From: Escherichia phage FL31
Sequence record: PP400782
Length of the DNA stretch: 64,000 nucleotides
Direction: 5' to 3' (one strand)
Positions 36,564 to 39,757 of this stretch are shown in pieces. The translations under genes were made by a program, and so were the position numbers. A model generated the notes under the pieces. That model had not been told where the DNA came from. It made no database searches and saw only the letters and a list, made by a program, of their open reading frames with translations. Positions within the stretch are counted from its first letter, which is position 1, and each line of letters starts with the position of its first letter.

Positions 36564-37520
36564 TTATTTGAAAGGTTTTACCATATGGAAATTTTGTTTG
36601 AAACGTTTGACGTAATCGTCATGTCCTAAGCTTTGGTACATACTTACTACTTTGCTGTAGTTTTCCCAGGCGTATTCACGGAACCAACCGGAGGTGATGC
36701 TTGTACAGACCTTTTCCAATGCCGTCATAAAACTGGCTTCAGGGTTAATTTTAAAGTCATTAGGAATCTGAGAACGTTCTAATGCTAATACACATGATTC
36801 TTCATATACACCGGCCAATTTGACCATTTCCGGTAATGATTCGAACTTCTCGCGTGAGGTCATGACTTCAGAACCATCTTTCATGTAAAATGTATACGCT
36901 GGACGGTCTGTTAGTGCAATGGCTTCATGAATAGTATCATGGTCATATGTATAGATGTCATCTTTAAAGAATGCGCTTTTAGAAGTGTCAAGAACCGGGT
37001 GAGCATAATTCAAGGTTTCTTTCTGGCGTTTCAGCATAATTTCAGTAAGTTCATCGTTCAGTGTAACACCTTTACCACGAAGATACTGAATATGGTTCAT
37101 AGTCTTTAAAAAGAATGGATTATTTTTCTTGAAACGATGAGACATCTTAATTGCAAGACACATCTCAGGAGTTGCCCAGTAAAACCCGTTAAAACGATCT
37201 TTAGTCAAATTTTTCTTGGCGTATTTTAAAAGGTCATAAGAAGACGTGAAATCTTCAGGAGTGAGTTCACCGACTAATTCACGGACATTAGTGATTGCCG
37301 GAACAATATATGCTTCAAAATGAGTTTCGCGTCCATTATGGAAGCATTTGAAAACTTGGACATCAGGGTTATCTTGGTGAACATATACACCCATCATTTG
37401 ATTTTTGAATGCATTCCAAGAACCTTGGTCCGCAATAAAGTCCCAATCACTATTTTTAATAGCGCTAGAATCAATAAGACCGTGATAGTGAAGTGCACGA
37501 GAACCAATAACTAACATCAT
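36564..37520 (-). CDS. Hypothetical protein
   Basis: 318 aa ORF. Confidence 0.55.
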   Translation of the reverse strand: MMLVIGSRALHYHGLIDSSAIKNSDWDFIADQGSWNAFKNQMMGVYVHQDNPDVQVFKCFHNGRETHFEAYIVPAITNVRELVGELTPEDFTSSYDLLKYAKKNLTKDRFNGFYWATPEMCLAIKMSHRFKKNNPFFLKTMNHIQYLRGKGVTLNDELTEIMLKRQKETLNYAHPVLDTSKSAFFKDDIYTYDHDTIHEAIALTDRPAYTFYMKDGSEVMTSREKFESLPEMVKLAGVYEESCVLALERSQIPNDFKINPEASFMTALEKVCTSITSGWFREYAWENYSKVVSMYQSLGHDDYVKRFKQNFHMVKPFK

Positions 37521-37548: not shown

Positions 37549-37800
37549 TTAAATTTCACGACATGCGATATTATATTCATCCCAGAGGTCATCGTGTGAA
37601 GCCTCTACTAATGGAACGATTGTACCATTTATGTCTTCATTATAAGGGCAAATTGTACAATGTGCATCTTCGAATCGGATGCCTTTGTGTTCAGATTTTT
37701 TATAACGCATATCGAATATCTTTGCAAACTTTTCACGAGTAATGGTTTTACCAACCACTTCGGTTCCGATACTTTCGTAATAAATCATTGTGGACTCCAT
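37549..37800 (-). CDS. Hypothetical small protein
   Basis: 83 aa ORF. Confidence 0.5.
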   Translation of the reverse strand: MESTMIYYESIGTEVVGKTITREKFAKIFDMRYKKSEHKGIRFEDAHCTICPYNEDINGTIVPLVEASHDDLWDEYNIACREI

Positions 37801-37807
37801 TTAATTT

Positions 37808-37846
37808 GATAGGACTACTATAACATAGCCCTATCTTGTTGTAAAC
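37808..37846 (-). promoter_or_regulatory. PeSL-like early promoter cassette
   Basis: gataggactactataacatagccctatc + gtaaac. Confidence 0.55.
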
Positions 37847-37851
37847 TGTTT

Positions 37852-38049
37852 TTAGCAAGAATAACTAGATGATACCCAGCCTTGAACAGTAATACTATTG
37901 TGGGATAATGAGATCGCGTCCTGGAGATTCAGACCTGCGTTATCTTCAATCCATAATGTAACTTCTTCGCGTTCTTCTGTTGCAATTTGGAACAGGTTTT
38001 CTAGAGCAGCTACTGCGGTACGTACAGCACAATCTAATTCACGAGACAT
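37852..38049 (-). CDS. Small protein, WVSSSxxC family paralogue C
   Basis: 65 aa ending ...QGWVSSSYSC. Confidence 0.5.
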   Translation of the reverse strand: MSRELDCAVRTAVAALENLFQIATEEREEVTLWIEDNAGLNLQDAISLSHNSITVQGWVSSSYSC

Positions 38050-38058
38050 ATGGTTTCC

Positions 38059-38331
38059 TTAGCAAGTGTGAGAAGATGCAACCCAACCACCAGTTTCGAG
38101 GCTCAGGTTGTAGTCATATTGGTAAACGTCCGCCCATTCAGCATAGCCGTTTTTTGTACAACGTTCAAGATCGGCTTTAAGATGTCCGGGTGAATGATAG
38201 GTTCCACCCATACCATAAGCTGGGTACAAGTTGAATGTTGTGTTTTGTTTATCAGCAATTTCTTTGGCAGCCTCAATAGCTGCATAGATTTTTGCTACAG
38301 CTTCGGCCAGTTCGGTTTGTTCTTTAGACAT
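38059..38331 (-). CDS. Small protein, WVSSSxxC family paralogue B
   Basis: 90 aa ending ...GGWVASSHTC; MSKE N-terminus. Confidence 0.5.
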   Translation of the reverse strand: MSKEQTELAEAVAKIYAAIEAAKEIADKQNTTFNLYPAYGMGGTYHSPGHLKADLERCTKNGYAEWADVYQYDYNLSLETGGWVASSHTC

Positions 38332-38340
38332 AATGATTCC

Positions 38341-38646
38341 TTAGCACAACGCAGAAGACGAAACCCAAGCACCTTCAGTAATAACGTATCCATTACCTTC
38401 ACGCTTAACATCGCCGCCATTATTTTCAATTTCATCTTTCATCCACTGGGATACGATTTCACCCTTAGGATAATAAGTACGACCGCTACCATAATCACCT
38501 ACAGAAAATGATACGGCATATTGGTCTGCGATCTTTGTTGCTTCTTCTTCGATACGTTCAGCTTGATTCAGAAGTTTATAAATTGCATCTGAAGCGGATT
38601 TGGCATCATTAAACTCTGGTACTTTAATTTCAATAATCTTACTCAT
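38341..38646 (-). CDS. Small protein, WVSSSxxC family paralogue A
   Basis: 101 aa ending ...GAWVSSSALC; MSK N-terminus. Confidence 0.5.
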   Translation of the reverse strand: MSKIIEIKVPEFNDAKSASDAIYKLLNQAERIEEEATKIADQYAVSFSVGDYGSGRTYYPKGEIVSQWMKDEIENNGGDVKREGNGYVITEGAWVSSSALC

Positions 38647-38744
38647 TTTCTACATTCCTTAATAAAGTTTTCGATTGTTTCATTTTCACGTCTAGCTAGG
38701 AGTTCATTATAACTAATCATTTGAGAAGCGTAAACAGCATAATT

Positions 38745-39167
38745 TCAGTTGAGGCTTTTGCATCTTATTTCCTTAACGAATTCCATAGCTTCTTCATATT
38801 CATACTTTTTAACAGCTTCATCATACTGAGCTTGGGCTTTTGCGCACTGAACTTTCCATTCTCTTAATCTGGCTCTGTGATGACGTCCTTGGTACCAATA
38901 TCCCATCCAGTTAATAGGCATTAATAAAAACGGTATAATAAGTGGTGCGACGAACATTAATGAAAATGCTGCATCAGACGATATAACTTCACTAGAATCT
39001 AAAACAGCTCCTATAATCATAAAGATTAAAAATGCTAAAGCTAAAATAGGGCCAAATAATACTTCATTTGGGATTAATTTACGCTTGTATTCATACGCCC
39101 AGGGCTTAATTGGCATGTATAGGGTTGGCTTTGACATATTCTCTACATTCCATAATAAATTGCTCAA
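38745..39167 (-). CDS. Membrane protein
   Basis: 140 aa with TM helices; basic C-terminus. Confidence 0.5.
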   Translation of the reverse strand: MSNLLWNVENMSKPTLYMPIKPWAYEYKRKLIPNEVLFGPILALAFLIFMIIGAVLDSSEVISSDAAFSLMFVAPLIIPFLLMPINWMGYWYQGRHHRARLREWKVQCAKAQAQYDEAVKKYEYEEAMEFVKEIRCKSLN

Positions 39168-39729: not shown

Positions 39730-39757
39730 AAGGAGGACCGGAGTCCTCCGTATTATT

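Follow-up and report, generated by a model that had tools for sequence, protein, structure and literature searches.

The window analysed here, a 64,000-nucleotide stretch of Escherichia phage FL31 DNA (PP400782), is 98% identical to RB69-like Mosigvirus genomes. Between lysozyme e/e.2 and e.4–e.6, a few kilobases from the tRNA cluster, it carries three adjacent minus-strand genes whose small products share a C-terminal tail, and the gene for a nucleotidyltransferase-like enzyme stands downstream. The initial annotation described open reading frames (ORFs) of 101, 90 and 65 residues with particular endings, two of them starting MSK, and the ORF list and reverse-strand sequence bear this out, with MSR as the third start. 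P1 (38341–38646, 101 residues, RB69ORF139c type) ends in GAWVSSSALC, P2 (38059–38331, 90 residues, RB69ORF137c) in GGWVASSHTC and the reduced paralogue P3 (37852–38049, 65 residues, RB69ORF136c) in QGWVSSSYSC, with the last ten codons read from the reverse strand at 38344–38373, 38062–38091 and 37855–37884, respectively. P1 and P2 match phrog_899 (E 1.3e-22 and 5e-19), while P3 matches phrog_4882 over its full length (E 7.7e-37). The enzyme (36564–37520, minus strand, 318 residues, RB69ORF134c) is composed of the Pfam domains DUF7277 (PF23942) and DUF7275 (PF23940), and its gene starts about 330 nt downstream of the P3 stop codon. The tail genes and the DUF7277-DUF7275 gene constitute a two-part module, which numerous large lytic phage lineages have inherited, and the tail proteins and the enzyme probably work together.

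We compared the three endings with chance expectation. Among the 221 Met-initiated ORFs of at least 40 residues in the window, three end in W..SS..C against 0.00026 expected from composition, and P1, P2 and P3 are the only ones that terminate in Cys, which is the sole Cys of P1. P3 encodes its tail with other Val and Ser codons (GTA TCA TCT AGT vs GTT TCG TCT TCT), so the constraint lies at the level of the protein, not the DNA. The three bodies had been described as divergent and acidic. They are indeed acidic, with computed isoelectric points (pI) of 4.6, 5.0 and 4.2 and net charges of −6, −5 and −7, but they are not unrelated. P1 and P2 share a long N-terminal helix, a Y-G-x-G-x-T-Y loop (DYGSGRTYYP in P1, AYGMGGTYH in P2) and the phrog_899 match, and align with each other by pairwise BLAST across the loop and tail (E 2e-4). 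P3 consists of a helix, a short β region and the tail, without the Y-G loop. Although hhalign matches P3 to the family profile over the last 14 columns only (probability 88.8%), its tail-less body still matches a relative of P2 (E 2.7e-5). Thus, the three are true paralogues, P3 having lost the loop. Nor are they pieces of one frameshifted gene, since full-length, stand-alone orthologues of the same size are found for each in many phages; separate AAGGA Shine-Dalgarno sequences and ATG codons for P1, P2 and P3 likewise speak against such an origin.

A profile search of 1.8 billion cluster representatives recovered 173 at E<1e-3. Almost all are 70–120 residues long (median 89), with a median net charge of −9, and the match extends to the final residue. 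The C-terminus reads W-x-[S/A/P]-S-S-x-x-C-COOH in 137 of 151 representatives; in those 137 the search pattern itself dictates W at −8, S at −5 and C at −1, while 134 of them also have S at −4 and 77 have no Cys other than the terminal one. In an alignment of 141 sequences W94, S97 and C101 are invariant, and A40, Y52, G53, G55, Y58 and S98 near-invariant. The tail is therefore real, as first proposed, being near-invariant in orthologues and in some 170 divergent representatives. The family is one of phage-specific small acidic cytoplasmic proteins with a long N-terminal helix, an acidic linker, the tail G-x-W-x-S-S-S-x-x-C-COOH and, usually, the Y-G-x-G-x-T-Y loop. P1, P2 and P3 belong to it, each bearing the tail at the end of an acidic protein of 60–150 residues with an N-terminal helix.

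Several members (P0100, P0065, P0140, P0130, P0125 and others) have variant tails or extra repeats. Some add one or two W-x-S-S repeats just ahead of the terminal motif, for example GWESSSEGWVSSSSQC, while in others the tail is shorter by one residue (W-N-S-S-x-C) or runs one residue past the Cys (WVSSTQECN). Five partial matches to a 953-residue helicase (P0104) were discarded as spurious, falling on helicase-associated repeats.

The family had not been recognised from the sequence alone, and searches of the trio against Pfam, NCBIfam, PADLOC and PDB sequences returned nothing significant, only sub-threshold noise. PHROG 899 and 4882 are clusters without annotation, whose records mention neither the tail motif nor any connection with the enzyme (phrog_2141). 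Full-text literature searches turned up no publication that treats these ORFs, the two DUFs, the PHROGs or the tail motif. An AlphaFold (AF2) model of P1 has a predicted local distance difference test (pLDDT) score of 94.3, and it matched no solved fold; the tail motif, too, lacks a known precedent.

We then examined the neighbourhoods of the tail genes. The family is too little conserved for an alignment-based locus search; viral contigs were scanned with a DNA pattern coding for YGMGGTYY. The tail genes found in this way occur mostly as adjacent pairs or trios, and the sole widely shared neighbour is a homologue, of about 300 residues, of the window ORF at 36564–37520, present in 13 of 13 assessable loci. 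In the forward direction, we took 80 IMG/VR loci containing the enzyme, with flanks of ±6 kb, and counted tail genes with a regular expression on six-frame ORFs. Two long-form motifs had served to preselect these loci, and it is for the long form of the enzyme that the figure holds: in 71 of the 80, one to four same-strand W..SS..C ORFs lie no more than 3.5 kb upstream (one, two, three and four copies in 27, 21, 11 and 12 loci). Elsewhere in these loci, about 1 Mb in all, there is a single such ORF. When the enzymes are divided into 16 clades with less than 60% identity between them, the tail family accompanies 14, and the runner-up neighbour family five. In the reverse direction, we picked six tail proteins out of the profile search, regardless of the enzyme; five of their contigs were long enough to assess, and all five have the enzyme downstream, at distances of 22 nt to 1.4 kb.

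The gene order is kept in Phapecoctavirus, Otagovirus, Lazarusvirus, Busanvirus, Tulanevirus and jumbo phages. Named phages with the same order are phAPEC8, Pseudomonas PHB09, Acinetobacter Berthold, the Erwinia jumbo phage Kaldavass, Acidovorax ACP17, Salmonella 7t3 and Aeromonas AS-gz. In contrast, 185,579 bacterial and archaeal genomes, one per species, contain five loci, all on metagenome-assembled contigs with the same phage-like module. The module is thus essentially confined to phages, and we rejected an origin as a bacterial chromosomal toxin-antitoxin pair.

Other genes recur near the module. Ser/Thr protein phosphatase genes lie 1–3 kb away in phAPEC8, Kaldavass and 7t3 (locus L027, 1540–2283; L030, 6151–6930; L032, 6646–7389), and nicotinamide phosphoribosyltransferase genes are nearby in several other phages (L035, 1–1287; L121, 2514–4169); neither is conserved across clades. 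In phage OR576727.2 (L124, 65–1206), the tail gene and enzyme gene are preceded, some 3 kb upstream, by genes for a Macro-domain protein and a HopBF1-like kinase, a setting suggestive of anti-defence or host manipulation.

The N-terminal domain of the enzyme, DUF7277, is a Pol-β nucleotidyltransferase core with G6-S7, D25-x-D27 and E69. These signature residues are at least 90% conserved and are visible in 13 of the 16 clades, the remaining three being truncated ORF calls. DUF7275, the helical C-terminal domain, is the most conserved part, with 50–60% identity between T4-like and jumbo phages. Its invariant residues include K125, H128, K139, H194-D195, H198, E240-E241 and E248-R249, joined in the long form by C272. 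The structural neighbours are the MenT1 toxin (score 10.0), the aminoglycoside nucleotidyltransferase ANT(2'') (8.7), TglT, which is the MenT3 toxin (8.4), TM1012 (7.7), MenT4 (7.7) and the lincosamide nucleotidyltransferase LnuA (7.2), with poly(A) polymerases lower in the list. By this comparison, the enzyme resembles a Pol-β nucleotidyltransferase in fold and workings, closest to the DUF1814/MenT toxins. Its pI of 5.3–8.8 shows that it is not basic. DUF7275 has no sequence match in the PDB, and a Pfam scan at E≤1 returned DUF7275, DUF7277 and one weak unrelated match only, with no DUF1814 (AbiEii). RlaP, an RNA-ligase-associated Pol-β nucleotidyltransferase (PMC7824862), was considered as the identity of the enzyme and set aside for want of a Pfam match. 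The comparative survey of jumbo phages that describes RlaP also covers CCA-adding nucleotidyltransferases, but not this enzyme (PMC7824862).

The enzyme family comprises 2176 homologues in the protein search and occurs in 734 phage genome records. These counts are too low to include the many Tequatrovirus genomes, from which we infer that T4 itself lacks the module; this would explain why it has gone unstudied. A short subfamily of about 250 residues, from KVP40-like vibriophages and Streptomyces and Gordonia phages, lacks residues ~28–90, in the middle of the nucleotidyltransferase domain, and has K-T-I-T-S in place of the K-V-C272-T-S of the long form. None of the five short-form loci, from Vibrio phages K408, Va3 and 1.081.O, Streptomyces phage Beuffert and Gordonia phage Toniann (L121–L123, L033, L034), has a tail gene within ±5 kb. 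The contrast between the forms ties the tail proteins to the long enzyme in this small sample of five loci.

The initial annotation placed the trio in a plastic region between two promoter cassettes, and promoter-like sites do stand at both ends of it. A σ70/T4-early-like promoter, TTTACG-17-TATAAT (38706–38734, minus strand), lies upstream of P1 and is kept in other Mosigviruses. An 11-bp hairpin (37808–37835, minus strand; −16 kcal/mol, z −4.3) directly follows the P3 stop codon, closing the putative unit of the trio, and the equivalent site in phage SA79RD is annotated as a terminator. A second promoter-like site, TTTACA-17-TATAGT, with a TG (37817–37845, minus strand), precedes an 83-residue ORF and the enzyme gene. 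This ORF (37549–37800, minus strand, phrog_3723), which lies between the trio and the enzyme gene, encodes an acidic protein with three Cys and is not kept with the module outside close relatives. From these predicted signals, the trio looks like a separate early transcription unit. Reading the plastic region as a sign of an accessory or host-directed role is less convincing, as the module is conserved far beyond the T4-like phages.

What might the two partners do together? Our first-ranked reading, which is speculative and which we hold with less than even confidence, is that the tail proteins serve the enzyme as substrates or clients. The invariant tail, with Trp at −8, Ser at −5 and −4 and Cys at −1, would be the element that the C-terminal domain of the enzyme, itself just as invariant, recognises, probably as a site of modification. 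The enzyme would move a nucleotidyl or phosphoryl group onto a tail serine near the terminal cysteine; this modification would switch or arm the small proteins, whose duplicated and diverged bodies could then act on host targets early in infection. A tail that stays invariant in phages infecting Escherichia, Aeromonas, Acinetobacter, Pseudomonas, Acidovorax and Erwinia needs an equally conserved partner, and the co-inherited DUF7275 appears, from sequence conservation, to be the obvious candidate. Several diverged small genes per single enzyme suit clients better than an inhibitor, and Ser-Ser and Cys at a fixed distance from the C-terminus are as expected of an active site that reads a C-terminus. 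Pol-β enzymes that modify proteins are well known, as in MntA-HepT, GlnD-PII and CitX-CitD. By analogy, the structural neighbours ANT(2'') and LnuA, which put nucleotides on hydroxyl groups, would also fit, and MenT toxins are able to phosphorylate their own Ser/Thr (PMC11375011). The initial proposal of a shared interaction or modification signal gains strong indirect support from a nucleotidyltransferase-like gene co-inherited in at least 14 clades. The picture of a tail attached to otherwise free bodies does not stand, since the tail is part of the AlphaFold fold and the bodies are homologous.

Several observations weigh against a substrate role. AlphaFold sets W-V-S-S as a β-strand within the confident P1 fold, and in this model the tail serines may be structural rather than exposed acceptors. 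The nearest structural relatives of the enzyme act on tRNA, not on proteins. In the window the trio and the enzyme gene fall in separate transcription units with the unrelated 83-residue ORF between them, and in other loci anything between 45 and 1725 nt separates tail gene and enzyme, a spread that shows no need for tight coupling. A canonical tail ORF is missing from nine of the 80 enzyme loci; at least two of the nine carry variant tails, and another lacks upstream sequence altogether. The P1 orthologue of the reference RB69 genome (P0002, RB69ORF139c) is annotated at 71 residues, diverges past residue ~67 and has no tail, apparently through a frameshift or truncation, which suggests that at least this copy is dispensable in the laboratory strain. 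Finally, beyond co-occurrence, the argument for substrates is inferential.

We compared the module with known pairs of this kind. GlnD is a Pol-β nucleotidyltransferase that nucleotidylylates its small partner, PII, on a hydroxyl side chain. In type VII toxin-antitoxin systems, MntA polyadenylylates HepT (PMC7641770). The likeness lies in a Pol-β nucleotidyltransferase paired with a small protein. However, the small proteins of the module have no HEPN match in Pfam or NCBIfam, no matching fold and no PII features, and the candidate acceptor is a Ser near the C-terminal Cys, whereas the acceptor in HepT and PII is a Tyr. In CitX-CitD and MdcG-MdcC, the holo-acyl-carrier-protein synthases of citrate lyase and malonate decarboxylase, an enzyme of the nucleotidyltransferase superfamily puts a nucleotide-derived prosthetic group on a conserved Ser of an acidic carrier of about 100 residues that is encoded nearby. 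Only this general logic is shared. Neither phage partner has a Pfam or NCBIfam match to these proteins, and the Ser of the module is part of a C-terminal tail with a native thiol next to it, in a phage rather than a metabolic context.

A more ambitious form of the substrate reading makes the module a new phage post-translational modification system, which we consider distinctly unlikely. Here, the enzyme would activate the tail Ser by nucleotidylylation or phosphorylation, and the terminal Cys would take part in follow-up chemistry, giving covalently modified early effectors aimed at the host. Candidate reactions would be elimination with thioether ring closure across S-x-x-C, or formation of a thiol-linked nucleotide adduct. 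Ser-x-x-Cys is the spacing of a common lanthionine ring size. Clusters for ribosomally synthesised and post-translationally modified peptides (lanthipeptides, C-terminally modified scaffold peptides) likewise combine tandem small genes, an invariant Ser/Cys motif at a fixed C-terminal distance and one enzyme. The module has the Ser-Ser-x-x-Cys core, but among the window neighbours and the conserved neighbourhood there is no LanB/LanM/LanKC/LanL-type, radical SAM, cyclase or other maturase domain. Its small proteins are also confidently folded domains rather than leader-core peptides, and they are encoded by lytic phage genomes.

A close rival to the substrate reading, though in our judgement somewhat unlikely, treats the tail proteins as antitoxin-like regulators. 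A MenT-like enzyme would modify the 3' ends of host RNA, for example tRNA acceptor ends, and so shut off or reprogram translation, while the small proteins would bind it through helix and tail to block, time or redirect it. The best structural neighbours, MenT1, MenT3 and MenT4, point in this direction, as does the placement of small genes upstream of a nucleotidyltransferase gene, which recalls menA1-menT1. The enzyme also has the Pol-β fold, the G-G/S and D-x-D of motifs I and II and the third carboxylate that are typical of MenAT and AbiE (DUF1814) systems. MenA1 is a protein of 68 residues whose long central helix is enough to inhibit MenT1 (PMC10435456, PMC7450476), and the tail proteins have a conserved long helix and strong acidity. 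In addition, the phage lineages that bear the module are all large and have their own tRNA or RNA-repair genes.

The departures from MenAT and AbiE are nevertheless substantial. The enzyme has no DUF1814 Pfam match and no PADLOC assignment, its C-terminal domain is much larger and very conserved, and its pI range differs from the electropositive MenT toxins (PMC7450476). Motif IV, which in MenT toxins supplies a Lys/Asp pair (K189/D211 in MenT3, K137/D152 in MenT1), points both ways. Judged by sequence position rather than structure-based residue mapping, the invariant K125 lies 98 residues past D27, a spacing similar to that of MenT1; there is no invariant Asp 15–22 residues past K125, position 143 being Asp in the majority of sequences and His in the window copy. 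The tail proteins are unlike MenA1 or AbiEi and have no family or fold match, and one to four diverged paralogues per enzyme would be unusual for an antitoxin. MenAT and AbiE antitoxin genes are co-transcribed immediately upstream of their partners, whereas the window has neither co-transcription nor translational coupling: the promoter-like site, the hairpin and the 83-residue ORF separate the two units. The module occurs in lytic phages only and is absent from bacterial chromosomes. Moreover, regulation of this kind leaves the invariance of Ser-Ser and the terminal Cys unexplained.

It is harder still to credit an autonomous motif, in which Trp, Ser-Ser and Cys join the Y-G-x-G-x-T-Y loop in an intrinsic site such as a metal or nucleotide pocket, or a disulfide or metal bridge between the subunits of paralogue hetero-oligomers. 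On this view the small proteins act alone, for example as sponges or mimics, and the enzyme would only share their pathway. The tail is built into the fold with high AlphaFold confidence, Y52, G53, G55, Y58, W94, S97, S98 and C101 could make one site, and pairs or trios of paralogues would permit hetero-oligomers. However, P3-type and other members have the tail without the loop, and no known sponge or DNA-mimic fold was matched. An autonomous role also leaves unexplained both the near-obligate linkage in fixed order with one enzyme and the joint loss of the tail genes and the long enzyme form.

A signal read by the host independently of the enzyme, such as a protease degron or a peptide that docks on a conserved host machine, is very improbable. 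A motif at a fixed C-terminal distance is typical of C-terminal recognition signals, and the genes have early-type promoter-like sites. Yet the tail is kept across phages of very different hosts, which have an obvious conserved partner in the linked phage enzyme, and it is modelled as folded rather than as a free peptide. To our knowledge, it is unlike the known C-terminal degrons of Escherichia coli. An artefact, whether chance similarity or pieces of a frameshifted gene, has only adjacency and small size in its favour and is refuted virtually beyond doubt by the three endings against 0.00026 expected, the separate ribosome-binding sites, the orthologues and the tails of 137 of 151 representatives.

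We rate the module as new in kind, since no known system has its defining parts, with the caveat that its logic may prove to be a variant of the nucleotidyltransferase-partner pairs. Functions are known for only a minority of the early genes in T4-like and jumbo phages, and the C-terminal W-x-S-S-S-x-x-C signature ties more than 170 small-protein clusters to one uncharacterised enzyme family. This provides a directly testable two-component system in tractable Escherichia coli phages (RB69-like, JS98-like and phAPEC8-like). If the tail proteins are clients, the enzyme would be a protein-modifying nucleotidyltransferase with a C-terminal acceptor motif, new for lytic phages. If they are regulators, it would be a MenT-like enzyme that modifies RNA ends under the control of a whole family of small acidic proteins, equally new for lytic phages. 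First functional leads would follow for two Pfam DUFs and two PHROG families.

The region next to the trio shows further features. Between e.4 and P1, about 240 bp that are present in most Mosigviruses are missing from the window (38647–38745; compare locus L001, 5243–5602). The deletion, which phage LF82-41 also has, takes out most of an e.3-like membrane-protein gene and keeps the P1 promoter GTTTACG...TATAAT. The adjoining e.4 homologue (38745–39167, minus strand; L001, 5581–5955) resembles a small membrane protein, with a weak Yip1 match and phrog_2604. It is labelled ‘sulfurtransferase’ in Shigella phage JK42, and this label, which belongs to the e.4 homologue and not to the trio, is probably an unreliable annotation. 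A perfect GC-rich hairpin at 39732–39749, GGAGGACCGGAGTCCTCC, lies between the e.5-like gene and the e.6-like gene and has a terminator score on both strands.

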